Origin: Limisphaerales bacterium
GTDB lineage: Bacteria > Patescibacteriota > Microgenomatia > UBA1400 > PJMF01
DNA: 64,000 bases
Reading direction: 5' to 3'
Assembly: GCA_044350895.1 (NCBI GenBank)
Contig: JBILGT010000002.1
Location: 36,554 to 100,553, forward strand
Made by a program: the position numbers and the translations under genes. This document shows, piece by piece, positions 2,912-35,984 of this stretch; position 1 is the stretch's first letter, and each line of letters begins with the position of its first letter. The notes under the pieces are model-generated. The model was not told the DNA's origin. It was given only the letters and a program-made list of their open reading frames with translations, and did no database searches.

Positions 2912-4207
2912 ATGAAAAGAATACACAAATTTATAGTGAGTGCTAGTCTTTTCTTTGTTTTGATCCTCCAAAGCTTTATACAACCCCACACTGTCCGCGC
3001 AGCTGAGGCATGTCCTGGTACAACTGAAGGTTTTGGTGTTGAGCTACCACCCTATACCACAGACCTAAAACATACCGTTAAATTTGATACAACAAATTGG
3101 AGTAAAGATTACAAATATTTTATTGTGATTCGTTCAAGAGAATATGTTCCAGATATTGGTACTCGCAATGTAGAAGCAGATTCACCAGCATTTAAATTAG
3201 GAGCCGACACGTCTGTTTCAGATAGTGATGGGAAAGTTACTCTCACAGGTTCCCAATTAACATACGAAATAACATCAAGTTGGGCACTGCAAAATCGCAA
3301 TAATTCTTATGATTATCAAGATAAACATTATGTAGAAATCCATCGATACGCAACTGTTGCGATTGGCAACACCTGGAACTACTTCTGTAGCGGAGGAACG
3401 TACACCACTTCACCAGGCATCAAAGGCTGCAAGATTACTGTTTACCAGAATCGCTCTGATCAAGGTGGACAAGCATGTTATCTAGGCGGCAGCAATAGTT
3501 GTATTCAAACAAGTAGCAGTGAACAGGTGAATGTTCGGGTTGATAATTTAAAATACTCTGACGGCAAGGTTGTGGATGGTCTTGAAGTAAGCTTTGTGTT
3601 TGGGCAACCTGGCATGGGGGTAGCACCCGACTCTTTCCAAACAATCAGGAATGGTTCTGCTGCCGGTGCGTTTTACCCAAATGGGAGAGGCACCTTTAGT
3701 ATTCAACTGAGAATGCGTCGCTGGGGCATCAACTATGATATTCCAGGATGTTACAGAGAAATCGAAGTTGAAGAAGTCTGTAATGATAAATGCAACAAAA
3801 CTGAGACAAGTACTGATAGTACTGAGAATCTTGATATAGTTTCTGTTTTTCAAATTTGTTCTCAAATTAGTAACACTGAACTTAAGGCAAAATGTGAGGA
3901 GTGTGCCGGTGGCCCAGATGGTCGTAAGGGTGTTTGGACGGCGGTGGGGTGTATTGAACGCGATCCACAAAATATAGTGCAGCGCTTTATTGAGATTGGG
4001 CTAGGTGTAGGAGGCGGTATCTGCTTACTAATGACACTGGCCGCAGGCTTTATGATTACCACTTCTCAAGGTGATCCGAAACAGTTCAACGAAGCTAAAG
4101 ACATGATTACTTCAGCAATTGTTGGATTATTGTTTATAATTTTCTCAGTGTTCATTTTACAATTTATAGGTGTGACAGTCCTGCAAATTCCAGGATTTGG
4201 AAGCTAA
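2912..4207 (+). CDS. secreted protein with large N-terminal extracellular domain fused to a C-terminal VirB2/TrbC-like pilin-type two-helix domain
   Basis: Signal peptide (MKRIHKFIVSASLFFVLILQSFIQPHTVRA). The C-terminus '...GLGVGGGICLLMTLAAGFMITTSQGDPKQFNEAKDMITSAIVGLLFIIFSVFILQF...' has the same TM1-(G/S)GDxxK...A(K/R)(N/D)-xxxSAIxGL-TM2 architecture as the pilin array at 9.6-14.4 kb. Confidence 0.5.
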   Translation: MKRIHKFIVSASLFFVLILQSFIQPHTVRAAEACPGTTEGFGVELPPYTTDLKHTVKFDTTNWSKDYKYFIVIRSREYVPDIGTRNVEADSPAFKLGADTSVSDSDGKVTLTGSQLTYEITSSWALQNRNNSYDYQDKHYVEIHRYATVAIGNTWNYFCSGGTYTTSPGIKGCKITVYQNRSDQGGQACYLGGSNSCIQTSSSEQVNVRVDNLKYSDGKVVDGLEVSFVFGQPGMGVAPDSFQTIRNGSAAGAFYPNGRGTFSIQLRMRRWGINYDIPGCYREIEVEEVCNDKCNKTETSTDSTENLDIVSVFQICSQISNTELKAKCEECAGGPDGRKGVWTAVGCIERDPQNIVQRFIEIGLGVGGGICLLMTLAAGFMITTSQGDPKQFNEAKDMITSAIVGLLFIIFSVFILQFIGVTVLQIPGFGS

Positions 4208-4217
4208 TCATATATCT

Positions 4218-5534
4218 ATGAACAAATTACGACTCTTTATCTTCACCACACTGATATTTTTGTTTACGTTCTTTATTCAAACTACTACCGTGCATGCTGC
4301 GATAGGTGCTGACTGTGGCAATCATGGAAGATGTGGGGGTACATCAGATGGTTGTGGTGCAAACGAAATTTGTATTGATGCTACCGTCTGGGATACACAA
4401 GGTGGTAAGTGTGAAGCGTCAAACGGACGCTGTGAGAATCGAGATGATTCAAGGAATGAAGTCTGCGGCTATACTGATGGTCTCCTGCATGGCACAGATC
4501 AATGGTGTGGAGCCCGCGGCGGCTGCGCCACAGGATACCTGTGTAATAGCACTTCTAAAAAATGTGAGCTTAATAATGGGGATACTGCTGGAGGCGCCGT
4601 TGGCTCAGCATGTGCAAATATCCAGGAAGTATATGATAGCCAGTGTGGCTACTGGACTTCCAATCAATGTGGCGCAGCTGGCGTTTGTCAGACCGGGTAT
4701 CGCTGCGTTGCTGTGACCTCAATCATTAGCCGAACTGGCTATGCCTGTAGACCAGATCCCACAGATGAACCCAATAAATGTCCAGGGTCTCCTACACAAC
4801 CTGCAGTTGCATTGAGCTGTGGTGAATCTTCTGACAACCCAAATGCAACGTGCAGTTGTTCAGGCACTGGTGCTGGACTTGTTGACTTGGCCTACGGCAA
4901 AAAGTGTTGTGGCTGGAAACTAAATGGTGGAGCTGACTGTGGTGCAACAAGCCCCACTACCCCCCTCCTGTGTGGCCAAACTTCTGCAAATAGTACGGCA
5001 ACCTGTGGTTGTACAGGAGCAACTCTCACTCGGAATACCAATGTCGACGCAACAACAGAACGCAATCAAATGTACTGTTGTGGGTGGATAAACGGCAAAA
5101 GTTGCGGAAGTACCAAACCAGCCACCCCAGTAGATCCAGCAAATCCTGTTGATCCTACAGATCCTGGAACAGGTGGTGCTGATGACACGACAACTTTAGA
5201 TATTTTTGCAGGTCCGAATTCTGAAGACTTTAAACTACTCAATCCTATTGCAAACTTCAGTACTGATGCCGCAGCGCGAGCTTCATTTACCTCTCCTGGT
5301 GGAATTATTTCGCGGGTGCTTCTCTTTGCATTTCCAATTGCAGGATTAATCCTGTTTGTAATGCTAGTCATTGCAGGATTCCAGATTGTAGCTGGGGCAG
5401 CATCAAGTGGCAGTAAATCAATTGATGCTGGTAAACAACGTGCCAGCAATGCACTCCTTGGCTTTGTGCTACTCTTCGTTGCCTACTGGGTAATGCAGAT
5501 TATTGAAACAATTTTTGGAATTACGATTCTCTAA
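4218..5534 (+). CDS. cysteine-rich secreted modular protein, Pro-rich linker, C-terminal VirB2/TrbC-like pilin-type domain
   Basis: Probable start at 4218 (MNKLRLFIFTTLIFLFTFFIQTTTVHA signal peptide) rather than the track start 4197. Repeated CG..G.C..GY.C and C.C.G.G....CCGW modules, a PxDPxNP linker, and C-terminal '...FPIAGLILFVMLVIAGFQIVAGAASSGSKSIDAGKQRASNALLGFVLLFVAYWVMQI...'. Confidence 0.5.
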   Translation: MNKLRLFIFTTLIFLFTFFIQTTTVHAAIGADCGNHGRCGGTSDGCGANEICIDATVWDTQGGKCEASNGRCENRDDSRNEVCGYTDGLLHGTDQWCGARGGCATGYLCNSTSKKCELNNGDTAGGAVGSACANIQEVYDSQCGYWTSNQCGAAGVCQTGYRCVAVTSIISRTGYACRPDPTDEPNKCPGSPTQPAVALSCGESSDNPNATCSCSGTGAGLVDLAYGKKCCGWKLNGGADCGATSPTTPLLCGQTSANSTATCGCTGATLTRNTNVDATTERNQMYCCGWINGKSCGSTKPATPVDPANPVDPTDPGTGGADDTTTLDIFAGPNSEDFKLLNPIANFSTDAAARASFTSPGGIISRVLLFAFPIAGLILFVMLVIAGFQIVAGAASSGSKSIDAGKQRASNALLGFVLLFVAYWVMQIIETIFGITIL

Positions 5535-8463: not shown

Positions 8464-8802
8464 TTACTCGGAAAAAGCTATCCAGAAGCGGATCAATAAG
8501 TAAAACAATAAAATTTGCCAATATACACAAAAAAGCACCAACCAATTTGCAAAAAATGGGATCAGATCACAACCAAAAAAGCTGGTAGTTTGACAAGAAA
8601 AAATAAACCGGACTGCTGGCACAACCAGAAAAAACCAGACAATTTTTGCCAAAACATACACGGCCACTGGCAAGAAAGTCATCCAGGCAAATACTCTCTC
8701 TCGAGTCAGCGACTGCATTGTTTGATATGGGTGCAGTAACAGACCACCAGTGATCTGTGCAACAGAGTATATGAATGAAGCAAGGAACGCGCGGTTGTTC
8801 AT
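8464..8802 (-). CDS. small polytopic membrane protein (3-4 TM), function unknown
   Basis: Hydrophobic throughout. 4-bp overlap with the upstream 71-aa ORF, so it is the third gene of the sigma-factor operon. Confidence 0.35.
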   Translation of the reverse strand: MNNRAFLASFIYSVAQITGGLLLHPYQTMQSLTRERVFAWMTFLPVAVYVLAKIVWFFLVVPAVRFIFSCQTTSFFGCDLIPFFANWLVLFCVYWQILLFYLLIRFWIAFSE

Positions 8803-9014
8803 AATTTGATCCAGTTCAATGCTTCAAGACCAAATGCTGTTAAACCAGAGAGTACGGCGAGTACTTGCCAAGGATAGTTGCCTACAAATGCCGCAATGGA
8901 ATCAAGTTTATCGGGAAGGACTTTATTTGAGTGGAGTCGCGCCTGCATCTGGGCTTCAAACTGCAGCTTTGATAAAAAATCCATTTTTTGTGGTTCTTCA
9001 ACGGGTTGATCCAT
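8799..9014 (-). CDS. small single-pass membrane protein; candidate anti-sigma factor
   Basis: Immediately downstream of the ECF-like sigma gene (stop/start 4 bp apart). Has a cytoplasmic N-terminus and a C-terminal TM 'WQVLAVLSGLTAFGLEALNWI'. The assignment is by position only. Confidence 0.3.
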   Translation of the reverse strand: MDQPVEEPQKMDFLSKLQFEAQMQARLHSNKVLPDKLDSIAAFVGNYPWQVLAVLSGLTAFGLEALNWIKL

Positions 9015-9017
9015 AAA

Positions 9018-9602
9018 TTATGTGCTCTCTTGCTCCAAATATAGTAATCTAAATTGCTCACGTGCTCTGAATAACTCAGATTCCACTGATTTTACAGTTT
9101 TCCCCAGTTCAGTGGCAATTTGTGCCACTTTCTGGCTATCAACGTACTTTTTGAGCAAAAGTTCTCGAGAATATTCATTCATTTTTTTGAGTGCAACTAG
9201 GACACGAGCTGAAACTTCATGAGAATCTTCCACAGGACTTGAGAGCAACAGATGTGATAAAGCAGTGGTTTGAATTGCCTTTTTGGCATACATTTTTCGA
9301 TAAAAGTCAGCAACTTCATGTTTTGCGATAGCAGACATCCACGTCCAGAGACTCGCACTACCGTTATACAGGGACAAATTTTTTAGACAGTTTAAGAAAG
9401 TCTGCTGTGTCATTTCTTCAGCATCTTGGCTATTTTCCACTCTACTTTGAATGAATCTGAGGATTTTTTTATGAAAATGGTTAAACCAGTACTCGACGGC
9501 ATCTCGATCACCGAGTTTCAAAAGCTCTACTAGTTGCATTTCACTTTGTTGGTTCATACTACAGGAAGTATACTTTATTCTAGCTACACCGTATAATATC
9601 AT
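9018..9602 (-). CDS. RNA polymerase sigma factor, sigma-70/ECF family
   Basis: Region-2-like 'DAEEMTQQTFLNCLKNL' and a region-4 HTH 'SQKVAQIATELGKTVKSVESELFRAREQFR'. The likely true start is the internal Met at 9557 (MNQQSEMQLVELLK...). Confidence 0.65.
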   Translation of the reverse strand: MILYGVARIKYTSCSMNQQSEMQLVELLKLGDRDAVEYWFNHFHKKILRFIQSRVENSQDAEEMTQQTFLNCLKNLSLYNGSASLWTWMSAIAKHEVADFYRKMYAKKAIQTTALSHLLLSSPVEDSHEVSARVLVALKKMNEYSRELLLKKYVDSQKVAQIATELGKTVKSVESELFRAREQFRLLYLEQEST

Positions 9603-9606
9603 CCAT

Positions 9607-9966
9607 ATGTTTTTTCTAGTACAAAAAGTATATGCTGCAGGCTGCTCAGATCTAGACTATGGTTCTCCCGAACTTAATTTAGGCAGAGTGCTTTGCTTGA
9701 GCGACAGCACAGCTGTTGAAGATGTCTATAAAGATCCAGCATTTCTTGTCAACTTAATTGTTAGCAATTTATTTGTTTTTGCTGGAATAATAATTTTTCT
9801 TCTTATTTTTTACGCTGGATTTAAATTTATCTCTCAAGGAACTAAGGGCAAAGAGGAAGCAAAAGGGATCATTACTGCCGCTGTGACTGGCTTAGTATTG
9901 ATGTTTGCAGCATATTGGGTCCTCCAGATTGTAAAAACATTAACGGGGACTGACGTTGCACTCTAA
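9607..9966 (+). CDS. VirB2/TrbC-like pilin-type small membrane protein, paralog 1
   Basis: TM1 (LVNLIVSNLFVFAGIIIFLLIFYAGF), loop 'SQGTKGKEEAKG', TM2 (IITAAVTGLVLMFAAYWVLQIV). A TATAAT lies 12 bp upstream. Confidence 0.5.
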   Translation: MFFLVQKVYAAGCSDLDYGSPELNLGRVLCLSDSTAVEDVYKDPAFLVNLIVSNLFVFAGIIIFLLIFYAGFKFISQGTKGKEEAKGIITAAVTGLVLMFAAYWVLQIVKTLTGTDVAL

Positions 9967-9969
9967 ATT

Positions 9970-10419
9970 ATGAAAACAAATATAGTACTCAAAACTATTA
10001 GCTATATCTATCTTTTTGCTGTTATTATCAGTGCATTTTTCTGTATCCCAGGCCTCACCTTCGCACAAACTGCTGAAGACTTAGGGGTTGGAACAATTGC
10101 AGCCCCTCCTGGCGTGGATAAATATAATGCTGCCGCACAAGCGCAAGGTGCCGATATTGCGATCGTTTACTTTATGTCGAACATGATCAAGCTCTTTACG
10201 GTAGTTGCTGGAATCTGGGTAATTTTGAATGGCATTCTTGCAGGCTACTACTTTGTGCAATCAAGTGGAGACGCAGGCACCTATGAAAAAGCCCGTAATC
10301 AAATTACTCAAAGTGCCATTGGTCTTGCAATGATTGTACTTTCATATATGTTTACTGGGCTTGTTGGTTTACTTTTCTTTGGAGATGCGGGTATATTCTT
10401 AAATCCAAGGTTAAAATAG
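9970..10419 (+). CDS. VirB2/TrbC-like pilin-type small membrane protein, paralog 2
   Basis: Signal peptide plus 'VVAGIWVILNGILAGYYFVQSSGDAGTYEKARNQITQSAIGLAMIVLSYMFTGLVGLLFFGDAG'. Confidence 0.55.
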   Translation: MKTNIVLKTISYIYLFAVIISAFFCIPGLTFAQTAEDLGVGTIAAPPGVDKYNAAAQAQGADIAIVYFMSNMIKLFTVVAGIWVILNGILAGYYFVQSSGDAGTYEKARNQITQSAIGLAMIVLSYMFTGLVGLLFFGDAGIFLNPRLK

Positions 10420-10420
10420 T

Positions 10421-10969
10421 ATGAAACAGTTTATACTCAGCATCGTTGTTGCACTCTCAGTGCTATTCTTCGTCCCTACAGTGGCGCAAGCACAATCATG
10501 TCCTAGCAACCGGACTTGTAGTGGCGGTTGTACCGCTGTGGGCCAATGTGTTGGAAACAAACGATGTGTTAGTGTACAAGGCGTTATTTACCCTGGAACA
10601 GTTGATTGTGGTTCTGCCCAACTTGGCGGAGTTAAGCCACCTCCAGCTATTACTAGTTTTAATTTTCAAACTGGCTCTGCATCAGGCAATGGCATCATCC
10701 TCTTTTTATCTAGATTGATCAATCTTTTTGTCATAGTGTGTGGAATCTGGACAATGTTTAACTTTTTATATTCTGGATACATTCTAATTTCTTCTCAGTC
10801 AGATACTAAAAATCAAAGTGAAATAAAAGATAAATTAACAATGACAGCCATTGGCTTGGCTATTATTGCCGGAGCATACATAATCGCTGGACTAATCGGT
10901 CTTATTTTCTTTGGAGATGCGGGATATATTCTCAATCCGCAGCTCGTCAGCGCACTTGATAGAGGGTAA
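10421..10969 (+). CDS. VirB2/TrbC-like pilin-type small membrane protein, paralog 3 (with Cys-rich N-terminal extension)
   Basis: Signal peptide, a CPSNRTCSGGCTAVGQCVGNKRC module, then the shared two-helix domain ending 'IGLIFFGDAGYILNPQL' (same C-terminal tail as paralog 2). Confidence 0.55.
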   Translation: MKQFILSIVVALSVLFFVPTVAQAQSCPSNRTCSGGCTAVGQCVGNKRCVSVQGVIYPGTVDCGSAQLGGVKPPPAITSFNFQTGSASGNGIILFLSRLINLFVIVCGIWTMFNFLYSGYILISSQSDTKNQSEIKDKLTMTAIGLAIIAGAYIIAGLIGLIFFGDAGYILNPQLVSALDRG

Positions 10970-11025
10970 TATGGCTGGAAGATAGACTTTCTTCTGTCAT
11001 ATGGGTATAATTACAGGCGTACATT

Positions 11026-11406
11026 ATGATGATATACATAGCACAAAAACTTACCCAGTTCGGTTCTGGTTTTGCACCAGTTGTTGATACTGCATGGACA
11101 GATGGCTCAGATACAGAAGCAGGGGTACTTACCAATTTAGAAGCATTCATTTCACAAATCTTGGGACTGATTACAGTAATTGGTAGTTTGTTCTTTGTTA
11201 TCAACTTTCTCATGGCTGCCTTGAGCTGGATCACCGCAGCAGGTGACAGCGGCAAAATTCAAAAAGCTCGCGACCAGATGATTCAATCTACGTTGGGACT
11301 TGTTATTATGGTAGGCTCTTATGCAATAATTGGACTTATTGGATCAGTGGTTGGTATCGATATCTTACAACCAGGCCAAGCATTAAAGATGTTGATCCCA
11401 AGGTAA
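11026..11406 (+). CDS. VirB2/TrbC-like pilin-type small membrane protein, paralog 4
   Basis: 'WITAAGDSGKIQKARDQMIQSTLGLVIMVGSYAIIGLIG'. Confidence 0.55.
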   Translation: MMIYIAQKLTQFGSGFAPVVDTAWTDGSDTEAGVLTNLEAFISQILGLITVIGSLFFVINFLMAALSWITAAGDSGKIQKARDQMIQSTLGLVIMVGSYAIIGLIGSVVGIDILQPGQALKMLIPR

Positions 11407-11411
11407 ATTTA

Positions 11412-11840
11412 ATGTCATTAAACAAGTTACAAAAGACCATCTCATCAGTTACAACAACTACAGCACTTTTAGTGAGTAGTTCTACTTTGGCACTCGCTCA
11501 AACAGGCATAACCAATCCAGCAATTGGCATTTATGGTAAAGACCCAAATGCGGCCAAGGCCGGCACTTCATTTGCGGGGTATGTCGCTATCATGTGGAAA
11601 GCTATGATTTCAATTGGAGCATTACTAGTTCTCTTATACTTTGTATGGGGTGCAATCGATTGGATAACAGCCGCTGGAGATAAAGGTAAAATGGAAGGTG
11701 CCCGCAATAAAATGCTCAATGCCTTTATTGGTTTACTGCTATTGGTCAGCTCATACACCATAATTGCATTCGTTGGCTGGCTATTCTTTGGAACTGAATT
11801 CAACATCTTACAACCAATATTTATATTTAATAATCCATAA
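11412..11840 (+). CDS. VirB2/TrbC-like pilin-type small membrane protein, paralog 5
   Basis: Signal peptide plus 'WITAAGDKGKMEGARNKMLNAFIGLLLLVSSY'. Confidence 0.55.
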   Translation: MSLNKLQKTISSVTTTTALLVSSSTLALAQTGITNPAIGIYGKDPNAAKAGTSFAGYVAIMWKAMISIGALLVLLYFVWGAIDWITAAGDKGKMEGARNKMLNAFIGLLLLVSSYTIIAFVGWLFFGTEFNILQPIFIFNNP

Positions 11841-11845
11841 TATTT

Positions 11846-12187
11846 ATGCCAACACCAACAAAAATAGACTTACAAGGAGGCGCAATCCTCGCACAAATTC
11901 CAGGCACTGAGAACATGGAATCGCCAAATGCCGGCTTTGCCCGTCTTATTGGGAATATTCTTGCCGCAGTCATGGTTGTTTCATTACTCCTTGTTCTCTA
12001 CTTTTTAGTAGTTGGTGCAATTGAGTGGATTACGGCAGCTGGCGATAAAGGTAAAATTGATTCAGCACGTAACAAAATGACAAATGCTGTTATCGGCATC
12101 ATAGTTTTATCTTCCGTTACCGCACTATTTGCAGCTGTACAATATTTCTTAGGTGTCAATGTACTTACATTTTCATTTACCCCGTAA
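11846..12187 (+). CDS. VirB2/TrbC-like pilin-type small membrane protein, paralog 6
   Basis: 'WITAAGDKGKIDSARNKMTNAVIGIIVLSS'. Confidence 0.55.
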   Translation: MPTPTKIDLQGGAILAQIPGTENMESPNAGFARLIGNILAAVMVVSLLLVLYFLVVGAIEWITAAGDKGKIDSARNKMTNAVIGIIVLSSVTALFAAVQYFLGVNVLTFSFTP

Positions 12188-12325
12188 GGAGCGATTGATT
12201 CGCATACTTTAGAGTCTGGGTAAATCAAACTGGTACTTGCAAGCACTAAAAGTATATTGCTAAGCTATTACTTGACGGAGAGCATATAATATAATCTAGT
12301 GTAAGATACACTTACAAGGAGCAAG

Positions 12326-12739
12326 ATGATTGGTAAATTAAACACGGCATTAGTAGCCAGTACAGTAACTGGATTTTTAAGTGCACCAATTGCATTTGCA
12401 GTGGAACCTACTTCAGGAGTTACTTCAGCAGTTGGCACAGTCACAGCAGGAACTGGATGGGCAGATAACATCGGTGGTTTAATCACTAGTGTCTTAACTA
12501 TCGTCATGGTTGTTGCTATCCTACTCGTCTTACTCTACCTCATCATGGGTGGTATCGAATGGATCACATCTGGTGGTGATAAAGGTAAAACTGAAGGTGC
12601 TCGTAACAAAATTACCTCAGCTATCATTGGTATCATCATCTTGGCAGCAGCTTATGCGCTCGTCCAACTTGTCGCCTACGTATTAGGATTTGCAAGTCTG
12701 AACGCAGCTCTCGAATCATTACCTAGAATCGGTACGTAA
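12326..12739 (+). CDS. VirB2/TrbC-like pilin-type small membrane protein, paralog 7
   Basis: AAGGAG RBS 8 bp upstream of the ATG and a TATAAT around 12286. Signal peptide plus 'WITSGGDKGKTEGARNKITSAIIGIIILAAAYALVQLVAYVLGFASLNAAL'. Confidence 0.6.
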   Translation: MIGKLNTALVASTVTGFLSAPIAFAVEPTSGVTSAVGTVTAGTGWADNIGGLITSVLTIVMVVAILLVLLYLIMGGIEWITSGGDKGKTEGARNKITSAIIGIIILAAAYALVQLVAYVLGFASLNAALESLPRIGT

Positions 12740-13179
12740 TAACAATAATAATGAATTTAATTAAAAGGAGTTACATGTTAAATAAAATTCAAAAAGCAGC
12801 AGCAGCAACTGCGGGAGTCGCAGCCAGCTTACTAACCACTGCAGTAGCATACGCTAAAGATACCAGTGCTATAGGCACAGTCACACCAGGTACAGGTTGG
12901 GCAGATAACATCGGTGTTTTAATCACCAGTGTCCTCACCATCGTCATGGTTGTTGCTATCTTGCTCGTCTTACTTTACCTCATCATGGGTGGTATCGAAT
13001 GGATCACATCTGGTGGTGACAAAGGTAAAACTGAAGGTGCTCGTAACAAAATTACTTCAGCTATCATCGGTATTATCATCTTGGCCGCATCATATGCACT
13101 CGTCCAACTTGTCGCCTACGTCTTAGGATTTGCAAGTCTTAATGCCGCCCTGCTCTCATTGCCTCAAATCGGTAAGTAA
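12433..13179 (+). repeat. tandem duplication (~300 bp units, ~440 bp period) of pilin-type gene bodies
   Basis: 12461-12739 and 12901-13179 align base-for-base with only scattered substitutions (e.g. gcagataacatcggtg[g/t]tttaatcac...). Confidence 0.8.
12751..13179 (+). CDS. VirB2/TrbC-like pilin-type small membrane protein, paralog 8 (near-identical tandem copy of paralog 7)
   Basis: The probable true start is 12775 (AAAGGAG RBS just upstream; MLNKIQKAAAATAGVAASLLTTAVAYA signal peptide). The mature domain is about 90% identical at DNA level to paralog 7. Confidence 0.6.
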   Translation: MNLIKRSYMLNKIQKAAAATAGVAASLLTTAVAYAKDTSAIGTVTPGTGWADNIGVLITSVLTIVMVVAILLVLLYLIMGGIEWITSGGDKGKTEGARNKITSAIIGIIILAASYALVQLVAYVLGFASLNAALLSLPQIGK

Positions 13180-13202
13180 TATTTTTAAAATTAGAATTTC
13201 AG

Positions 13203-13230
13203 AAACCCCCATCTTGTATGGGGGTTTTTG
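13203..13230 (+). terminator. rho-independent terminator after pilin paralog 8
   Basis: AAACCCCCA-tcttgta-TGGGGGTTT followed by a T-run. Confidence 0.7.
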
Positions 13231-13266
13231 GTATATTAGGTGTGTTTGTTACACATTTGACCCACT

Positions 13267-13821
13267 TTGATGTATAATGTAAGTCTAATGAAAAAAGCCG
13301 TTATATCACTTGTATTAGTACTCATATTTAATTTTTTAGCTGTATTTAGCAATCCCATAGTATTCGCAGCAGACGAGGTAAAATTAGTCAAAGATGGTAG
13401 TACCTACTATCTGAGTACTGAAGGTTCTGCATCCACCACGCGCAGTGGACAAACCTATCGTCTTGTTCCTGTTGAGCAAACCGCCGCAACCAGTGCTGCA
13501 AAAACAGCATCTCGTTCAGCAGTTGTTCCGCCTCCTGGATATGTAGGTAATATTGGAGAGCTTATCAGCTTCTTACTTAAGTTGGTAATGATTGTGGCAA
13601 TTTTACTTATTCTTCTCGCCTTTATCACCGCTGGTTTTGAGTGGATTACATCTGGAGGTGACAAAGGTAAAACTGAAAGTGCCCGAAACCGCATTGTCGC
13701 AGCTTTTGTTGGTGTACTCATCTTATCTGCCGCATACGCATTAACACTACTCGTTGCCTATGTTCTTGGTTTTGATAGTATTGATGATGTTTTTGGCAGC
13801 ATTAAGCGAATTAATCCATAG
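13267..13821 (+). CDS. VirB2/TrbC-like pilin-type small membrane protein, paralog 9
   Basis: Probable start 13288 (MKKAVISLVLVLIFNFLAVFSNPIVFA). 'WITSGGDKGKTESARNRIVAAFVGVLILSAAYALTLLVAYVLGF'. Confidence 0.55.
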   Translation: MMYNVSLMKKAVISLVLVLIFNFLAVFSNPIVFAADEVKLVKDGSTYYLSTEGSASTTRSGQTYRLVPVEQTAATSAAKTASRSAVVPPPGYVGNIGELISFLLKLVMIVAILLILLAFITAGFEWITSGGDKGKTESARNRIVAAFVGVLILSAAYALTLLVAYVLGFDSIDDVFGSIKRINP

Positions 13822-13844
13822 GTCACAAACTCTACATTCACTTC

Positions 13845-14372
13845 TTGCTGTTCTATCAGGTATACTATAGAGATTCAAAATCTATGCGCCGTAACACATT
13901 TACCTATCAAGTAATTTCATTTTTTAGAGCTGCAATCTTCAGTGTCGCACTACTTGCAAACGTCGCTGGCCCAGTCTACGCCCAAACCCAGGCTTGGTCA
14001 GGTGTGTGTGTCGGCCCAGCTCAGATTAATGCAGCAACGAAAGCCAATGATGTTGCTACTATCCAAGGCGTTCAGTGTCTACTTGCCAATGTATTTACTG
14101 TGATCATAACAATCGTCGGTCTGGCAGGATTTGTCATGTTTATTGTAGGTGCCTTTAGATATTTGGTTTCTGGCTCAAATAGCAAGGGTATTGAAGCCGC
14201 CAAAAATACCATTCAATACATGGTGATCGGCATTATTGTAACGCTCAGTGGTTTCATCATTCTGAATATGATTTCTTCATTCACCGGAATCGACGTCATT
14301 ACTCGATTTGTTATTCCAAGTTCAGATCGTGGTACTTCTGCAGATGACTATCCAATTCCAGTTGGAATGTAA
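13845..14372 (+). CDS. VirB2/TrbC-like pilin-type small membrane protein, paralog 10 (divergent)
   Basis: Probable start 13884 (MRRNTF...signal peptide). 'IVGLAGFVMFIVGAFRYLVSGSNSKGIEAAKNTIQYMVIGIIVTLSGFIILNMI'. Confidence 0.45.
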   Translation: MLFYQVYYRDSKSMRRNTFTYQVISFFRAAIFSVALLANVAGPVYAQTQAWSGVCVGPAQINAATKANDVATIQGVQCLLANVFTVIITIVGLAGFVMFIVGAFRYLVSGSNSKGIEAAKNTIQYMVIGIIVTLSGFIILNMISSFTGIDVITRFVIPSSDRGTSADDYPIPVGM

Positions 14373-14459
14373 TGCTTGTCGATTCTCCCCGACAAAATTA
14401 TAAATTACAGCACAGCATTCTCTTTCAGCTAAACCTCATGAATTAGGTATAATACAACT

Positions 14460-17400
14460 ATGATCAAACTCACGGGTATGAGGTTGTTTTTTTTGTGTGT
14501 GAGTTTTGTCGTGGGATTAATTAGCAGCGCCACATTAGTCTACGCGCAATCCAGCAATTTTGCTTCCTTCAAAGAAGATCTCGACTTTGTCCGTTCTCAA
14601 AGTGCTGCGGTACTTCTCTTTACACCACTTGGCTCCAACCCTGATCCTAACTTCAAAAAGCATGCGCTCAGCATGCAGCAAGTTCAAACACTCTGTGGTC
14701 AAACCGGAGACTGCGGAAACCTCGGTATTAACTTTGCCACAATGTTTAAGAAAGGTCAGTACGACAAGCTCAAGCAACTTAATATGCACTGGGCACTCGA
14801 AATCGCAGAGAAAGGTCGTGAAGCCAATGCTGCATCCGCCATTAATGAAAATCCCGATGCTCGAATTATTGTCCGTATTGGTGTAGCTGGTAATTCTGGA
14901 GGATTTGCTGACTACAACGGGAATGCAGCAGATTATATCGAGTTTCTTAAAAATCTTTCTGGTCAGGTGGGTGGCAAAGAATTTTACGCCATTGCAGGTC
15001 CAAATGAGCCAGATATCGAAAAGTGGATTGATCCCAATTGTGGAAGTGCACCGGGAGTTGAGTCAGCAGATTCACAGAAATTTTTTGATTGTGTGGGGCC
15101 AAAATTAACGCAGTATATGAACGCTGTGTGCGCCGCCAATCTCCCCAGTAATATCAAACTCCTCACTCCTGCTTTCAACATGACTTCATATAGCTTCCCC
15201 GGAATTGTCGCAGCCATGGAAAAATCAGGGGCAAACTGGAAGTGTTTCGCAGATCGCCAAACTGGTTTTGCAGGCAACCTCTACCCTGCCGGAAAAGCCA
15301 TGAAAGCATACTGGAATGATGACTACACAGGAAAAACAATTCAATTTTTACAGAGCAAAGGTTTGAAGGTATATATAACTGAGACAGGACCACACACTGC
15401 AATCAGCGCCCAAGATGTAAATGCTACAGCCCATGATTTTAGCGAGTTCTACATCCACCCAATCAAAGGAATTACTGGAGGTGATAAAAATATCATTCGT
15501 GATGATTTGGTTCGGCAAGGCTATGAAGCACGCTGTGCGGCCCCTGGATTTAATATTGAACTAGGTCAAGATGGCATTGAATGGATGGAAAAATATCTTA
15601 AATGTCGCGATGATGGCAAATGTAATGATGGAGATGTTGGCGATGGAGCTTCTTTTGGAGGAGAGACCATTCAACAATTTACAGCCACAATGAATGAGCA
15701 TACCTCCATTGGTCAAAGAGTGCTTTCAATTCTATCAATCGACTATCGAGACTCACTGATCCCTGTTTTTAGAGATGTTGACCAAGTCCCACAACTGAAA
15801 CGGTCACTTGAGGATTATTTTGGCTACAGAGAACCCGCCAACGACCAATATAACCTTGCTGAACTTAGATCTTCAGCTATAAATTCACTCCTCACAACCA
15901 ACCAACGATGCACCCAATCTGCTATCTCACTCTTACAAAGAGACGAAATGTGTAAAAAGCTACAAGATCCGACTAAATGTGCGCTGTACGAATCAAAAGT
16001 GCCTGAGACCCAACTTACCGTAAAACAACTTCTAGATGCATACAATGCTTATGCAGGAATTTCCACTGACCATGACGCCACGTGCTCAAAAATAACTGGA
16101 GGAGCTGATACAGAACTGCGTCGTGGAATGCTTAATCTGCCACTGCAAATTGATAACGCGTATCGCCTCGCATTTCTCGTTACCACAATCAGAACTAGAG
16201 TTCCGCTGGCTGGAGATATGATGAACTTGTTCCAACATCCACACCGTGGAGAACTCAATGAAGCCCCCGATCCTGCCCACGTCGTAATTGTGACAGCATT
16301 TAAAATACCTGATATCACAACAAATAAAGGCACAATTGACACACAAGGTGAACCAAAAAGCGGTCATACAGACTTCAATGACCCAGCTATGTTGACTCGC
16401 GATGTACTTATCCCAAGTACCATCAAACAAGAACTCGACAGGAGAGGTGATCTTGAACGTAAGAGATTACTCAATATGGGTCAAGTGATTGCAGACCAGG
16501 ATCAAGATGATAAAACAATGGAAATTGCCTGTCGCATCAAAGGTGTTGGTGGACAACAATGTCTCGATCCTTTAACTAGTGCGCTGGTGGATATTATCAA
16601 CGCACAATCACTCATTGAGACTGAGAATGAACAACTTATTGAAAAAGCTGTCGGGACAGATGTCTATACTGCTGTAGAAAAAGAACAGATGTTCAAACTC
16701 AACTGTGACGATGCTCCAACTGAAGAACCCACCTATATATTTGATCCAGGTGAGCTACAGCCACTCAACAATGCCGGCCGCGTATTCAAAACTGACTTTG
16801 GCGTAGCGATTTTGGAAAATCTTTTCACCGATGAATCACACATGAGACCAGGAACTTTTGAGTATGATCCTACCTATGCTGATACTGAGAGTAATAAAAA
16901 ATCAGCCCCCGGTGGTTTCCACTGGGGACTTAAGTCAGTTTTCCATGTCACTAGTGACAACACGTTTGGACCAACAGATACCAGCCGTTCTGTGAAACAT
17001 TTCATCGTCTACCCTGAAGGGTACGACCTTAAAACTGTTGAAGCGGTTATGTCGGGCACATTCTTTACGACACAACAAATTGTGGCATTGAGGGATAAGG
17101 CTCTTGATTATCAACGATTCATGATTAAAGACGACAAAATTTTATTTGATGGCGGCGAAATTTCCCACTCATTTACCGACTATACAGTGGAATACGATGA
17201 GGGCTATTGCGATACAACCTACTATAATTCTGCTGGAGAACTCAAACGTACACCTCCTTGTCCCACAGGTTCATTCGGCTTCAGACTTTTTGCCAGTAAA
17301 GATCCCACTTCAGCAGGAATTCTGGGAGGTAGACTTGGATTTTGGATGCACACCATTCAGCTCACCCTGCAACGAGCAGAAGCACTCACCCACAAATATC

Positions 17401-18686
17401 TTGAGAATTGTACTAGTACTGAAGATTTCTTGCTAGATCAATGCGGAGGCTCTTCAAGTAGCCAAGTAGGTAGTGATGAAGACAAAGATGATGACTTTGA
17501 TAAGCTCCAGCCATTCCCAATCACCTACTGGAATGGCAGCGAAGTCACATTCAGACCACCAAATCGAGAAATGTGGGATGCAATTATCAGTGCTTCAAGT
17601 CAGCATGGTTGCGATCCGTGGCTCGTACTCGCCACTGCTCATGCTGAAAGTGCCAACTTTGTAAATGAATCTTCACCAGGTAGTAATGGCGAGCAAGGAC
17701 TCTTTGGGTTTACCCCTGCTGAATGGGAGAAATGGAAAACTGAGAACAATTCACCTGCCAATGCAGATCACCACATGTCTCGTTGTGACTACTGGCAGCC
17801 TACATCCTTTTCTGCCCGCACACTTGATTTCAGCTCCCCCACCAACATCCGCTCTGCTGTAGATTCTGCGTGTCGCAGAATCCTTTGGACTGGGGCGCAA
17901 AGGCAAAGCAGCACGCAACAAAAGTTTTTGTACGATTTCAGTAGCTCAAACAAAGCTTACAAGAGTAACCCTTGGAATGGAGTAACTCCTGATGCTGAGA
18001 TCTGGACTAACAGTACTAATCAAGCAGACTATGTCTTCCGTTTATGGCAAGAGCTTTTGACAAAAACCGGCAATACTCCAAAATCACAACCTACTGGATA
18101 TCCATATGCTACTTGTATGGGAGAAGCACCAAAACCGACTGTCATAGACACCAACGCAGACGCAGCCGACTACAAAGGTCGCACTACTCTTCCAGCCACC
18201 GGACAAGCAACATACTATAGTGCTGGGGTGATGAACCAAGTGCTCAACTATCGTGAAGGTGGAGAGATTAATCCAAATCTCGTGGATACTTGTGAAATTG
18301 CATCCACCGGGGCACTCAAAGCACAGTTTGATCAAATGCAGGCTGAAGCAGATCGCAATGGCACTGGTAAATTTGTGGGTTGTGCAGCAATGCTGCGTTT
18401 GGGTGATGTACGATTCAGAGATAATAAGGATAAGAATGACGTTCGGGTCGTATGGATTCAGCGGCCACCAGGAGCTCCTTCAGATATTCCAGAAGTGATT
18501 GGGCCAATTGCAATTATTGACGTGGCGGCATCTCAGGACTATGCACGGTTGCGCGCAAAGGGTTGGATTATTGACTTAGACTTCCACACCTTCCGCAGAT
18601 TATTTGAGTGGCAAGGCAGTTGGAGACGTCCACAAGAAGGCATTAGAGTGTGTGACACAAGAGATCAGTGTTTACTTGGAAGTTAA
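14460..18686 (+). CDS. giant secreted multidomain hydrolase: clan GH-A glycosidase-like domain + lytic transglycosylase (SLT, VirB1-like) + C-terminal 3D/DPBB-like domain
   Basis: Signal peptide (MIKLTGMRLFFLCVSFVVGLISSATLVYAQ). 'AIAGPNEPD' (GH-A acid/base NEP) and 'VYITETGPH' (nucleophile TExG) in the N-terminal third. SLT catalytic region 'LVLATAHAESANF...GEQGLFGFTPAEW'. 'GQATYYSAGVMNQV...GEINP' near the C-terminus resembles 3D/RlpA-like DPBB. Confidence 0.65.
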   Translation: MIKLTGMRLFFLCVSFVVGLISSATLVYAQSSNFASFKEDLDFVRSQSAAVLLFTPLGSNPDPNFKKHALSMQQVQTLCGQTGDCGNLGINFATMFKKGQYDKLKQLNMHWALEIAEKGREANAASAINENPDARIIVRIGVAGNSGGFADYNGNAADYIEFLKNLSGQVGGKEFYAIAGPNEPDIEKWIDPNCGSAPGVESADSQKFFDCVGPKLTQYMNAVCAANLPSNIKLLTPAFNMTSYSFPGIVAAMEKSGANWKCFADRQTGFAGNLYPAGKAMKAYWNDDYTGKTIQFLQSKGLKVYITETGPHTAISAQDVNATAHDFSEFYIHPIKGITGGDKNIIRDDLVRQGYEARCAAPGFNIELGQDGIEWMEKYLKCRDDGKCNDGDVGDGASFGGETIQQFTATMNEHTSIGQRVLSILSIDYRDSLIPVFRDVDQVPQLKRSLEDYFGYREPANDQYNLAELRSSAINSLLTTNQRCTQSAISLLQRDEMCKKLQDPTKCALYESKVPETQLTVKQLLDAYNAYAGISTDHDATCSKITGGADTELRRGMLNLPLQIDNAYRLAFLVTTIRTRVPLAGDMMNLFQHPHRGELNEAPDPAHVVIVTAFKIPDITTNKGTIDTQGEPKSGHTDFNDPAMLTRDVLIPSTIKQELDRRGDLERKRLLNMGQVIADQDQDDKTMEIACRIKGVGGQQCLDPLTSALVDIINAQSLIETENEQLIEKAVGTDVYTAVEKEQMFKLNCDDAPTEEPTYIFDPGELQPLNNAGRVFKTDFGVAILENLFTDESHMRPGTFEYDPTYADTESNKKSAPGGFHWGLKSVFHVTSDNTFGPTDTSRSVKHFIVYPEGYDLKTVEAVMSGTFFTTQQIVALRDKALDYQRFMIKDDKILFDGGEISHSFTDYTVEYDEGYCDTTYYNSAGELKRTPPCPTGSFGFRLFASKDPTSAGILGGRLGFWMHTIQLTLQRAEALTHKYLENCTSTEDFLLDQCGGSSSSQVGSDEDKDDDFDKLQPFPITYWNGSEVTFRPPNREMWDAIISASSQHGCDPWLVLATAHAESANFVNESSPGSNGEQGLFGFTPAEWEKWKTENNSPANADHHMSRCDYWQPTSFSARTLDFSSPTNIRSAVDSACRRILWTGAQRQSSTQQKFLYDFSSSNKAYKSNPWNGVTPDAEIWTNSTNQADYVFRLWQELLTKTGNTPKSQPTGYPYATCMGEAPKPTVIDTNADAADYKGRTTLPATGQATYYSAGVMNQVLNYREGGEINPNLVDTCEIASTGALKAQFDQMQAEADRNGTGKFVGCAAMLRLGDVRFRDNKDKNDVRVVWIQRPPGAPSDIPEVIGPIAIIDVAASQDYARLRAKGWIIDLDFHTFRRLFEWQGSWRRPQEGIRVCDTRDQCLLGS

Positions 18687-19614: not shown

Positions 19615-19728
19615 TCCCTATAACTATGTATATTTGTTATCACACTATACCAATCGTTGTCTACATACAAAAAAAATTCCCAAGTTACTTTACCCTTTGC
19701 ATCATACTTTTGGTATACTACACACATC

Positions 19729-21426
19729 ATGTTGAAACGGATACTTCTGACCGTGTTTTCTTTGTTTGTGCTCAACACAAGTATTGTGAGTGCTCAAGGT
19801 ACAGCACCTACCCCAACTCCTGGTGCTGATGCAGACAACAATGGGTACGTTGATAACCCATACAGTTATAATATAACCACCGATGAGTATGCCTCATATA
19901 AAAAAGCCACTCAAAATTGTGAGACCCCTTCCCTAGAATGTTTGGTCAAGTACACTACTCGCTTTGCAGCTATGGAGTGGGCACTCGATATCGCCTATGG
20001 TCAAAAAATTGCTGACAACGGGCGCAGTGGCGGCGTCTTTGCAGGAGTAATGGGACTTGTAAATGAGATGTACAAGAATCCTGCGGCACACACAGCTACC
20101 TATGTGGCTGACGTGATGCACACAGCTGGTTTTGCTCCAAAAGCATATGCGCAAGGTCTGGGTTTTGCGTCCCTTGATCCAATTTTGAACTTATGGAAAG
20201 TGTTCAGAAATGTAGCGTACTTCTTCTTCATTATCATTTTCATTTTCTTAGGCTTTATGATTATGCTGCGCAAAAAGATCAGTGGACAGGCAGCAGTCAC
20301 TGCTCAGCAAGCAATTCCATCAGTCATTATTAGTTTGATTCTCGTCACTTTTTCCTATGCCATTGCTGGTTTCATGATTGATTTAATGTATGTACTGATG
20401 TTCCTTATTGTGGGCGTATTTGAAGGAATAACATCGAGTATCGAAGTGGCTGGACAACAAATGACTGGCGCGACCCTAGTTAACCTCAACTTTATTGGAT
20501 TGTTCGCATTTCTTTTTAAAGCAAATACTGATGCCCAGGCAATTGGAACTAACATAAACATTTCATCAAGTATTATTGAAGCAGCGGCAGATAGCTCTAA
20601 TGTGGCAACATACTTAGGTGGTGTTATCGGTGGATTGACACTCACCTTGATCATCACGGTTGCTGTTTTAATTGGTTCTGTCAGATTATTCTTTGAATTA
20701 CTCAAATCATATGCATCCATTATTATGTATGTTGTCACTAGTCCATTAGTATTAATGTTTGGAGCACTTCCTGGTAACGATGTATTTGGGAAATGGATCA
20801 AAGGAATTATTGGAAACCTTCTTGCCTTCCCCACAGTTTTATTAGTGTTGATAATTTTCATTGAATTTACCCATCAAGGTGGTAGCGCTGGCGGCGCAAC
20901 TGCAGGATTCATGCCACCATTTTTAATTGGAAATGGCAGTGCTGCAAACATGATTGGGCCACTACTGGGTCTTGCTATTATCTTAGGACTTCCAGACATT
21001 GTGAAAGAAGTTAAAAAAGCGGCAGGTGCTGGAGAAGGTGGAATTGGCAGCATGCTTGCTGGCTTTGCTACAAGTAATTTGAAGTCAGGAATTAGATACT
21101 CGCCGATTACAGGGCGCGCGGCTGGATATATTGGCGGTGCTGGAGAAGGAATAGCTAGAGCGGCGTATAACGGTGACTTCTTGACTAGACCAGGTGTTGC
21201 TTGGGACAAAATCAAAGGTTATGCTGGAGTACGAGGTGGGCAAGGTGCTGACTTCGGAAAGAGATTCGCGTCTGGTGCAGAACAGGTTTTTGAAAACAAA
21301 TGGATGGATCCTAATGCCTGGGAAAATGTCATTTTGTCTCAAGGTAGAGAGAAAAAAGCTGCAGAAATCAAGGCGCGTCTTGAAAAACTTGACAAACTCG
21401 GTCGTACCCCAGGCAGAAGATCTTAA
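19729..21426 (+). CDS. VirB6/TrbL-like polytopic membrane protein with Gly-rich C-terminal tail
   Basis: Probable start 19729 (MLKRILLTVFSLFVLNTSIVSAQ). About 130 aa extracellular, then about 8 TM helices and a G/A-rich cytoplasmic tail. The topology matches VirB6; there is no sequence-specific motif. Confidence 0.45.
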   Translation: MLKRILLTVFSLFVLNTSIVSAQGTAPTPTPGADADNNGYVDNPYSYNITTDEYASYKKATQNCETPSLECLVKYTTRFAAMEWALDIAYGQKIADNGRSGGVFAGVMGLVNEMYKNPAAHTATYVADVMHTAGFAPKAYAQGLGFASLDPILNLWKVFRNVAYFFFIIIFIFLGFMIMLRKKISGQAAVTAQQAIPSVIISLILVTFSYAIAGFMIDLMYVLMFLIVGVFEGITSSIEVAGQQMTGATLVNLNFIGLFAFLFKANTDAQAIGTNINISSSIIEAAADSSNVATYLGGVIGGLTLTLIITVAVLIGSVRLFFELLKSYASIIMYVVTSPLVLMFGALPGNDVFGKWIKGIIGNLLAFPTVLLVLIIFIEFTHQGGSAGGATAGFMPPFLIGNGSAANMIGPLLGLAIILGLPDIVKEVKKAAGAGEGGIGSMLAGFATSNLKSGIRYSPITGRAAGYIGGAGEGIARAAYNGDFLTRPGVAWDKIKGYAGVRGGQGADFGKRFASGAEQVFENKWMDPNAWENVILSQGREKKAAEIKARLEKLDKLGRTPGRRS

Positions 21427-33451: not shown

Positions 33452-33493
33452 ATCATGATAAGATACTAAAGAAAAGAATCGTGAACTTCATGT

Positions 33494-35923: not shown

Positions 35924-35984
35924 AATGACTTTTTTAATAAAGCCACTTTTACTCTGAGGTAAAATACAAGTACAATAGAAACCA

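Follow-up and report, generated by a model that had tools for sequence, protein, structure and literature searches.

Tandem arrays of genes for VirB2-like pilins have already been published for Patescibacteria, and the array examined here, ten consecutive genes (pil1 to pil10) occupying positions 9607–14372 of a 64,000-nucleotide (nt) stretch of contig JBILGT010000002.1 (the whole stretch is referred to as the window), is one more case, because such arrays have been catalogued (Quinonero-Coronel et al., 2025; PMC12102498) and found essential in a Saccharibacterium (Wang et al., 2023; PMC10633639). For the catalogue, the Pfam models PF18895 (T4SS_pilin; T4SS, type IV secretion system) and PF04956 (TrbC/VirB2) were run on 3,035 Patescibacteria genomes, and an array was defined as at least two PF18895 or PF04956 genes lying in tandem or one non-pilin gene apart in a genome with VirB4. 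This survey identified 441 arrays of 2–11 pilin genes in 383 assemblies, most abundantly in Microgenomatia and Saccharimonadia, with a mean within-array identity of 25% and a maximum of 54%; a pilin gene was found near virB4 in 1,135 assemblies, the T4SS often lies near dnaA, VirB6 is hard to detect in Microgenomatia, and an analogy with antigenic or host-range variation was suggested (PMC12102498). In Southlakia epibionticum, transposon-insertion sequencing (Tn-seq) showed the T4SS, including a predicted series of pilins, to be essential (PMC10633639; reviewed in PMC12857230), and in Saccharibacteria the pilin genes are located inside the T4SS cluster (PMC10633639). The function of the Patescibacteria T4SS has been described as completely unknown, and pilin genes as unexpected in a monoderm (PMC11665869; PMC12857230).

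By the published definition the window contains an array, namely ten tandem genes of the PF18895 family in a Patescibacterium that encodes VirB4. It is like the catalogued arrays in its family, in its tandem same-strand arrangement, in belonging to the same phylum and to Microgenomatia, in having its T4SS by dnaA and in its size, ten lying within the range of 2–11; as in those arrays, the genes scanned here revealed neither a relaxase nor a coupling protein. Collinear orthology of the subunit classes, a terminator after the type-8 gene, a divergent extracytoplasmic function (ECF) sigma factor and pilin fusions with immunoglobulin (Ig) domains, all reported below, are not described in PMC12102498; a search of its text for “sigma” and “ortholog” returned nothing, and the survey brings up neither a sigma factor nor orthology among array members. 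The comparisons lead us to favor, with a little better than even confidence, a reading in which the array encodes pilin-like hairpins of the VirB2 superfamily that serve a chromosomal, origin-proximal T4SS as a fixed set of subunits, the type 7/8 protein being the major subunit and the others minor subunits.

Canonical TrbC/VirB2/TraA pilins (PF04956) resemble the array proteins in having a leader, a two-helix hairpin with a basic loop and a VirB4-family ATPase, and pil8 matches their profile weakly; they differ in being encoded by one gene and forming a homopolymer with a VirB5 tip in diderm cells, whereas the system described here has at least six classes, three of them without leaders, in a monoderm, and does not reach the PF04956 cut-off. 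The virB2 paralogues of Anaplasma and Bartonella (cited in PMC12102498) likewise comprise several tandem VirB2-type genes per T4SS but are read as antigenic or host-interaction variants, whereas the present array is ancient, ordered and mostly single-copy and evolves at a housekeeping pace. The integrative and conjugative elements (ICEs) of mycoplasmas, with MMCAP2_0565 (NF045849) and MMCAP2_0566 (NF045848), also represent a monoderm T4SS with the same broad class of VirB4, but they are mobile, carry a single pilin-like gene and are matched here only far below the cut-offs. The consecutive locus numbers suggest that the two mycoplasma genes are presumably neighbors. These faint matches hint that, among monoderm T4SSs, those of Patescibacteria are not alone in having a pilin-like hairpin. 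The conjugation and DNA-import pili of the archaea Aeropyrum pernix and Pyrobaculum calidifontis (8dfu and 8dft) are built from VirB2-like hairpin pilins in cells that have no outer membrane, but sequence identity to them is just 12–15%. Type II secretion pseudopili and type IV pili provide an analogy rather than a homology: they are encoded by ordered operons that combine an abundant major subunit with specialized minor subunits, the major gene being set apart by its expression signals, but neither their fold, with a single N-terminal helix, nor their assembly machinery, in which a PilB/GspE ATPase works beside a prepilin peptidase, is related.

The hairpin module and its protein family

A check of the open reading frames (ORFs) recovered ten successive plus-strand ORFs of 113–184 amino acids (aa), with exactly the extent given for the run of small same-strand genes in the first-pass annotation of the window (Table 1). 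The starts of three genes were refined from the gene calls of the source contig and from Shine-Dalgarno positions, namely those of pil8 (from 12751 in the ORF to 12775, pil8 being 134 aa in the source-contig call), pil9 (from 13267 to 13288) and pil10 (from 13845 to 13884). All ten proteins carry at the C-terminus a common module in which a hydrophobic helix is followed by a short basic loop and a second hydrophobic helix, as had been proposed. The loop motif quoted for this module, (A/S)GD(K/S)GK..(A/S)(R/K)(N/D)....IG, is strict in genes 4–9 (for example, SGGDKGKTEGARNK) and merely loose in genes 1, 2, 3 and 10. A Sec-type leader with an AxA-like site, judged from hydrophobicity and visible AxA sites, was recognized in seven genes (2, 3, 5, 7, 8, 9 and 10); the attribution of a signal peptide to every gene was incorrect, because pil4 and pil6 have no such leader by the same inspection and pil1, which has two cysteines in its N-terminal region, lacks a classical signal peptide and has an N-terminal stretch of just 11 residues. 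Type-1 pilins open with a conserved short motif, such as MFFLVQKVYAAG or MKLQLIPQAYAQ (window positions 9607–9640 and orthologues), which looks like the last part of a signal peptide, AxA site included, and yet comprises only about 11 residues. Conserved residues and motifs are distinct for each class; pil10 has the conserved motif VATIQG.CL.AN, and pil2 a C-terminal tail FFGDAG..LNP. Pairs of paralogues are 13–46% identical, with the exception of pil7 and pil8, which are 80% identical overall and 98% identical in the hairpin core, against the maximum of 54% reported for published arrays; the description of the copies as ranging from near-identical to highly divergent was therefore correct. 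At the DNA level, the similarity between these two genes takes the form of a 300-nt repeat (12434–12733 and 12874–13173, 89% identical).

The best Pfam match of each of the ten proteins is PF18895, which puts the shared module far beyond chance. The gathering cut-off of this model (26.6 bits) is reached by six of the ten (pil2, pil5, pil6, pil7, pil8 and pil10) and by protein A, a larger pilin-domain protein encoded upstream, and is missed by pil1, pil3, pil4, pil9 and the second such protein, protein B; the sub-threshold pilins were joined to the family by a hairpin-core hidden Markov model (HMM) and by orthogroup clustering. In a Pfam search with the TrbC/VirB2 model PF04956, to which the first-pass annotation had expected similarity, the cut-off (27.9 bits) was reached by none of the window genes, but pil8 matched below it (21.0 bits, E 3.9e-4, profile positions 5–95 of 98), and among 100 homologues and paralogues, all of which matched PF18895, 13 matched PF04956 at E < 1e-3, with a best E of 2.8e-8. 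A superfamily-level kinship with TrbC/VirB2 is plausible from these matches, and the assignment to the VirB2/TrbC type rather than to type IV (PilA) pilins is upheld by them together with the PF18895 matches of all ten proteins. Of 1.84 billion representatives, 73,762 match at E ≤ 1e-3, which makes the PF18895-type family itself a very large one. The model NF045849 (Mbov_0395 family pilin-like conjugal transfer protein; cut-off 40 bits) was matched below its cut-off by pil8 (27.9 bits), protein A (23.4 bits) and pil10 (16.0 bits).

An AlphaFold2 model of pil8 consists of a leader helix followed by a hairpin (residues 54–86 and 91–124) with a predicted local distance difference test (pLDDT) score above 90. 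The best Foldseek match of this model, the archaeal conjugation pilin 8dfu (TM-score 0.58 on the target), is not significant, and fold searches with the model are non-discriminating, a helical hairpin resembling hundreds of unrelated chains. A search of PDB sequences with a profile of 100 pilin sequences returned chance matches only (FliL and a viral glycoprotein). The small size of the proteins and their two transmembrane (TM) segments would also suit small membrane proteins of an unrelated kind, for instance holins or proteins of bacteriocin immunity. Searches of Pfam, NCBIfam and PHROGs turned up neither a holin nor an immunity family, PHROGs gave no match to any other phage function, the window showed no sign of phage or toxin genes as a context, and PF18895 was always the best match, unrivalled by another family; this explanation is accordingly regarded as having a negligible probability. 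As judged from these sequence comparisons, the array proteins are T4SS pilin-like hairpins of the VirB2 superfamily.

Subunit classes across relatives and the type 7/8 genes

In a scan of species-representative genomes, 375 were found to have a relative, and 80 loci were fetched and compared; array membership was determined with the hairpin-core HMM, and each member was assigned to the class of its best-matching window paralogue. In loci of at least 20 kb the arrays contain 6–11 genes, with a mode of 7, and one shorter locus has 12. The class order 1, 2/3, 4, 5, 6, 7/8/9, 10 is kept in all 76 species loci in which it was assessed, where 0.1 would be expected at random, and classes 1, 2/3, 4, 5, 7/8/9 and 10 are all present in 64 loci. 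All ten genes recur, at equal sizes and beside the same neighbors, in the sister genome (L003, a 1.37-Mb contig). Orthogroups were obtained by an unbiased clustering, for which the window did not serve as reference. Types 1, 5 and 10 each form an orthogroup with one copy per genome (71 members in 71 genomes for type 1, 73 genomes for type 5 and 78 genomes for type 10, which is always last in the array), and of the 76 genomes with type 4, 75 have a single copy and one has two (77 members); types 2/3 occur in at most two copies in each of 75 genomes, and types 6–9, an expandable orthogroup that includes pil9, in up to four copies in each of 82 genomes. Proteins A and B each form a single-copy orthogroup found in 24 of the 82 species loci. 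The near absence of leaders from two classes extends to their orthologues, with a signal-peptide-like N-terminus in 12% of the 76 type-4 and 9% of the 64 type-6 orthologues, and type 3, present in 24 species, always has a signal-peptide-like N-terminus, with a median of six cysteines. To judge from these sequences, the array comprises at least six subunit classes of ancient origin (1, 2/3, 4, 5, 6–9 and 10), fixed as a set and in their order.

Orthologues are 40–65% identical across species, which is higher than the identity between paralogues. Between the window and the sister genome, the pilins are 50–87% identical at the protein level (pil1, 87%), and neighboring housekeeping genes are 52–80% identical (UppS, 63%; amino-acid kinase, 73%; sigma factor, 73%; NUDIX, 52%); the pilin orthologues diverge no faster than these neighbors. 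Two other samples yielded copies of the locus with DNA identities of 100% and 99.9%. The rates at the locus and the near-identical copies in other samples therefore argue against rapid diversification.

One class stands apart. Column conservation across species is highest in type 7/8 (0.72–0.77, as compared with 0.59–0.65 in the other classes), and among the array genes only pil7 and pil8 have the strong ribosome-binding site AAGGAG. Directly 3′ of pil8 is an intrinsic terminator, AAACCCCCAT-CTTGT-ATGGGGGTTTTT, whose fold has a z-score of −3.61 and was equaled by none of 200 shuffled sequences; a comparable succession of A-tract, GC hairpin and T-tract stands behind the type-8 genes of 43 species out of 62, as against 0–3% after types 1–6 and 10, and an equivalent terminator also follows 14 of 62 type-9 and 2 of 6 type-7 genes, all of them in the 6–9 orthogroup. 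In five genomes that carry type 7/8 as a pair (the window, the sister genome, L007, L034 and L061), the cores are 95–100% identical within a genome and 59–94% identical between genomes, and the N-terminal parts are orthologous copy by copy. Because identity of the cores within genomes exceeds that between genomes while the N-terminal parts stay orthologous, this pattern indicates concerted evolution, in which gene conversion keeps the type 7/8 cores identical. Conservation, the AAGGAG site, the terminator and the homogenized cores together constitute the signature of a major subunit, and the type 7/8 protein is accordingly the candidate for the abundant subunit, its expression being deduced from sequence signals.

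These results bear directly on the suggestion, made in the first-pass annotation, that the ten copies reflect antigenic or host-range diversification. On this reading they would be interchangeable variants of one filament subunit, retained so as to vary the surface or to suit different hosts. The paralogues are indeed highly divergent (13–46% identity), the presumably exposed N-terminal regions differ most between classes, the copy numbers of the 6–9 and 2/3 groups vary by species in arrays of 6–12 genes, and the virB2 paralogues of Anaplasma and Bartonella supply a precedent (cited in PMC12102498). The invariant class order (76/76), the single-copy orthogroups, the housekeeping-like divergence and the absence of strain variation among the three samples stand against it, as do the closer relationship of orthologues across species than of paralogues, the differences between classes in leaders and regulatory signals, and the fact that the sole recombination signal homogenizes two copies. 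Antigenic variation is the reading least compatible with these data, and the suggestion of diversification appears improbable; the alternative offered beside it, a mixed repertoire of major and minor pilins, is favored by the ribosome-binding sites, the conservation, the core homogenization and the terminator.

Transcription signals and genes around the array

Five of the six plus-strand TATAAT hexamers in the region lie in the 11% of it that is intergenic (P ~1e-4), and most of about 45 species, some 40 of them, retain a TATAAT that ends 9–10 nt before the ATG of the type-1 gene. The boxes of pil1, pil9 and the gene for a 1408-aa protein downstream end merely 6–9 nt before the ATG; because they end so close to it, leaderless or near-leaderless mRNAs are suggested. 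The pil7 gene has its Shine-Dalgarno sequence AAGGAG 4 nt before the ATG, downstream of the box at 12285–12290. On the basis of these signals, the probable transcription units are pil1–3, pil4–6, pil7–8 (followed by the terminator), pil9–10 and the 1408-aa gene. A generic scan for promoters and terminators yielded 23 sites as compared with 22 expected, without overall enrichment, and missed the pil8 terminator, which was found by targeted folding and a cross-species scan; a search against Rfam gave no match in the window.

In 38 of 43 species loci, the first pilin gene has the ECF-type sigma-70 factor gene as its immediate, divergently transcribed neighbor. Profile searches gave no family match for the two small genes downstream of it, h71 and h112, which are possible anti-sigma or membrane partners of the sigma factor, and the module may regulate the array as a sigma/anti-sigma pair dedicated to it. 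In front of pil1, however, stands a −10 box that looks like a housekeeping TATAAT.

Proteins A and B are encoded upstream of the array (Table 1). In the predicted structure of protein A, a signal peptide is followed by an Ig/fibronectin type III (FN3)-like beta-sandwich ectodomain, a cysteine-rich linker and a C-terminal pilin hairpin; in its AlphaFold2 model (pLDDT 84.7), beta strands span residues 37–287 and the hairpin residues 352–423, and Foldseek matched the model to filamin Ig, intimin D0–D1 and C5a-peptidase FN3 domains (E 4e-6 to 1e-4). Protein B has a signal peptide, a large ectodomain and a C-terminal pilin hairpin, with TM segments at residues 11–29, 374–392 and 418–436. From the model and domain layout, these two proteins may be adhesin-bearing pilin fusions.

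Downstream of the array, the 1408-aa secreted protein is 77% identical to its orthologue in the sister genome, follows the array in 18 of 43 loci (those with long arrays) and has no family or PDB match; a lytic-transglycosylase motif noticed by eye in its C-terminal 448 aa was dropped, there being no PDB or family match. Arrays of 9–11 genes are followed by genes for the 1408-aa protein, a 303-aa protein and a 589-aa membrane protein. Of 43 species loci, 21 have the last of these downstream of the array. The 589-aa protein weakly matches NF045848 (mycoplasma ICE conjugal transfer; 16.8 bits against a cut-off of 90, E 0.0032); no Pfam match was obtained for it or for 42 homologues, a search of the PDB with a profile of those 42 sequences was empty, and none of 120 listed homologues has a precomputed Pfam domain. 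Its approximately eight TM segments would suit the VirB6/TrbL/PrgH class, and it is a candidate, as yet unproven, for the VirB6-like channel subunit.

The T4SS genes proper lie farther downstream, where genes for M23-peptidase, PrgI-like, TrsD-like and VirB4 proteins occupy 27606–38048, just upstream of dnaA (38152–39675); the window also encodes dnaN, rnpA and yidC. The 1613-aa M23 protein is, by its domain content, a candidate cell-wall hydrolase of the T4SS, and the VirB4 protein has a TraG P-loop domain (E 1.7e-21). VirB4 appears to be split (34685–38048): just upstream of the gene for the 687-aa ATPase lies one for a TrsD/VirB4-N-terminal-like protein of 412 aa, which has one TM segment. 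The array is thus located in an origin-proximal T4SS neighborhood whose layout matches that of published Patescibacteria T4SSs (PMC12102498), although the neighborhood is interrupted, because genes for a riboflavin kinase and an EamA transporter (26232–27534, plus strand) separate the block of pilins and large proteins from the VirB4 block. The window coincides with part of a metagenome contig of 119,181 bp (JGI/NCBI). The host is a Microgenomatia-type Patescibacterium, and records of homologues are named Pacebacteria, Woesebacteria, Microgenomates or Patescibacteria. Records of related genomes with the same array type and synteny are often titled “uncultured Pseudomonadales”, and the complete genome CP011212 (L032) is titled candidate division TM6; these titles look mislabeled.

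TABLE 1. Positions of the array genes, of the signals between them and of neighboring genes in the window.
Feature	Positions	Strand	Characteristics
Protein A	2912–4207	+	431 aa; PF18895 28.7 bits at residues 364–419
Protein B	4197–5534	+	~438–445 aa; PF18895 25.6 bits at residues 368–432, just under cut-off
h112	8464–8802	−	at least 2 TM segments; next to array in 38/43 loci
h71	8799–9014	−	71 aa; C-terminal hydrophobic segment; near array in 18/43 loci
ECF-type sigma-70 factor	9018–9602	−	TIGR02937 67.8 bits (cut-off 42.9); Sigma70_r2 and r4_2
TATAAT −10 box	9592–9597	+	ends 9 nt before pil1 ATG
pil1 (type 1)	9607–9966	+	119 aa; PF18895 20.5 bits, under cut-off
pil2 (type 2)	9970–10419	+	149 aa; signal peptide and hairpin; PF18895 28.0 bits
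pil3 (type 3)	10421–10969	+	182 aa; signal peptide, 6-Cys N-terminal domain, hairpin; PF18895 21.3 bits
TATAAT box before pil4	11006–11011	+	promoter-like site 10983–11011, 10/12 positions
pil4 (type 4)	11026–11406	+	126 aa; hairpin without signal peptide; PF18895 26.3 bits
pil5 (type 5)	11412–11840	+	142 aa; signal peptide and hairpin; PF18895 30.1 bits
pil6 (type 6)	11846–12187	+	113 aa; hairpin without signal peptide; PF18895 30.4 bits
TATAAT box before pil7	12285–12290	+	in 138-nt gap
pil7 (type 7/8)	12326–12739	+	137 aa; candidate major subunit, copy 1; PF18895 33.4 bits, highest of the ten
pil8 (type 7/8)	12775–13179	+	134 aa; candidate major subunit, copy 2; PF18895 29.9 bits
Intrinsic terminator	13203–13229	+	directly 3′ of pil8
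TATAAT box before pil9	13273–13278	+	ends 9 nt before refined start; promoter-like site 13250–13278, 10/12
pil9 (type 9)	13288–13821	+	177 aa; signal peptide, long N-terminal extension, hairpin; PF18895 23.7 bits
pil10 (type 10)	13884–14372	+	162 aa; signal peptide, hairpin with divergent loop; PF18895 28.5 bits
TATAAT before 1408-aa gene	14448–14453	+	found by hexamer search
1408-aa secreted protein	14460–18686	+	N-terminal signal-like TM segment; directly downstream of array
589-aa membrane protein	19657–21426	+	signal peptide, ~8 TM segments; 5.3 kb downstream of array
M23-peptidase membrane protein	27606–32447	+	1613 aa; C-terminal PF01551 (E 4.9e-9); 5 TM segments
PrgI (VirB3-like)-domain protein	33494–34684	+	PF12666 E 4.7e-4, under cut-off
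TrsD/VirB4-N-terminal-like protein	34685–35923	+	NF041427 E 1.2e-6, under cut-off
VirB4-family ATPase, monoderm CD1110 type	35985–38048	+	NF045971 372 bits (cut-off 325)

The first-pass annotation had placed the array a few kb from a VirB6-like and a VirB4 gene; the 589-aa candidate is indeed that close but has no significant VirB6 match, and VirB4 is 21.6 kb downstream, with unrelated genes between. This distance and the arrangement of the seven-gene arrays, which are flanked by uppS and NUDIX and followed by uppS and other housekeeping genes, would suit a T4SS-independent envelope structure controlled by the adjacent ECF sigma factor, with VirB4 merely sharing the neighborhood; the most constant neighbor of the array is likewise the sigma module (38/43) and not a T4SS gene. 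Against such independence stand the location of the Saccharibacteria pilins within the T4SS cluster (PMC10633639), the 1,135 assemblies that have a pilin gene near virB4 (PMC12102498) and the weak paired matches of the pilins to NF045849 and of the 589-aa protein to NF045848; in addition, the searches of the genes beside the array yielded no further assembly ATPase. We regard it as improbable that the array works apart from the T4SS.

Possible assemblies of the array proteins

If the array proteins are the subunits of the T4SS, the hairpins would be inserted into the membrane with both termini outward and the basic GDKGK..ARNK loop in the cytoplasm, by the Sec route for the seven proteins with leaders and by a YidC-type route for the rest. 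The type 7/8 protein, with its own −10 box, strong ribosome-binding site, terminator, duplication and converted core, would be the abundant major subunit, and classes 1–6, 9 and 10 would be low-abundance minor subunits that prime, cap, anchor or decorate the assembly, to which proteins A and B would add Ig-like ectodomains as possible adhesins. VirB4 and its partners would then extract the hairpins to form a wall-spanning stalk or a pilus at the site of contact with a host cell.

Several observations weigh against this reading. A T4SS filament has been seen in no Patescibacterium and has been raised only as a possibility (PMC12857230). To the failure of any window gene to reach the PF04956 cut-off, the distance to VirB4 and the housekeeping flanks of the seven-gene arrays must be added the derivation of the expression levels from sequence signals. 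In addition, relatives encode single polypeptides in which five or six hairpins are fused behind one signal peptide, and such fusions, unless they are cleaved, fit a membrane-embedded bundle better than extractable pilus subunits. The polypeptides observed with 5–16 tandem pilin hairpins behind a single signal peptide are P0241, P0244, P0245, P0279 and one at locus L085 1777–3435; P0241 sits in a pilin array and uses the standard genetic code. They are either processed polyproteins or proteins whose hairpins lie side by side in the membrane.

The fusions of five to six or more hairpins in related arrays speak for a membrane-embedded hetero-oligomer, such as a ring, channel, platform or short wall-spanning stalk, in which each class would occupy a fixed position and no extended pilus would be made. 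The invariant class order and single-copy classes, which suggest a fixed stoichiometry, the generic nature of the hairpin fold and the existence of known monoderm T4SSs without pili (PMC12102498; PMC12857230) are all in keeping with such an assembly. On the other hand, the family is named for and modeled on T4SS pilins, some of its members match TrbC/VirB2 significantly, the Ig-like ectodomain fusions suggest display at the surface, and the strong-expression signature of one class is typical of a polymerizing major subunit and not of a ring component. A hetero-oligomer of this kind is rather unlikely in our estimation, and a T4SS structure composed of an abundant type 7/8 subunit and a fixed set of minor subunits remains the reading that we favor.

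A more specific form of the latter can be put forward only tentatively, and we would sooner doubt it than assert it: the product would be an obligately heteromeric VirB2-type filament or stalk, composed of one major and at least five minor classes together with the Ig-domain fusions, assembled by a monoderm T4SS and tied in its expression to a dedicated ECF sigma factor. We know of no characterized T4SS pilus with such a composition, those known being homopolymers of one VirB2 with a VirB5 tip. If it is correct, the array would be to the T4SS what the sets of major and minor pilins are to type II and type IV pilus systems, and it would likely form the organelle with which Patescibacteria contact their hosts. 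With the comparative results, the working hypothesis for these arrays becomes a machine with a fixed set of several subunits and no longer one of variable surface antigens, and they provide as leads a probable major-subunit gene, single-copy minor subunits, promoter and terminator sites and a candidate sigma factor. They bear on the question of what the T4SS of Patescibacteria builds and does, a system that is essential in the one species in which this has been tested.

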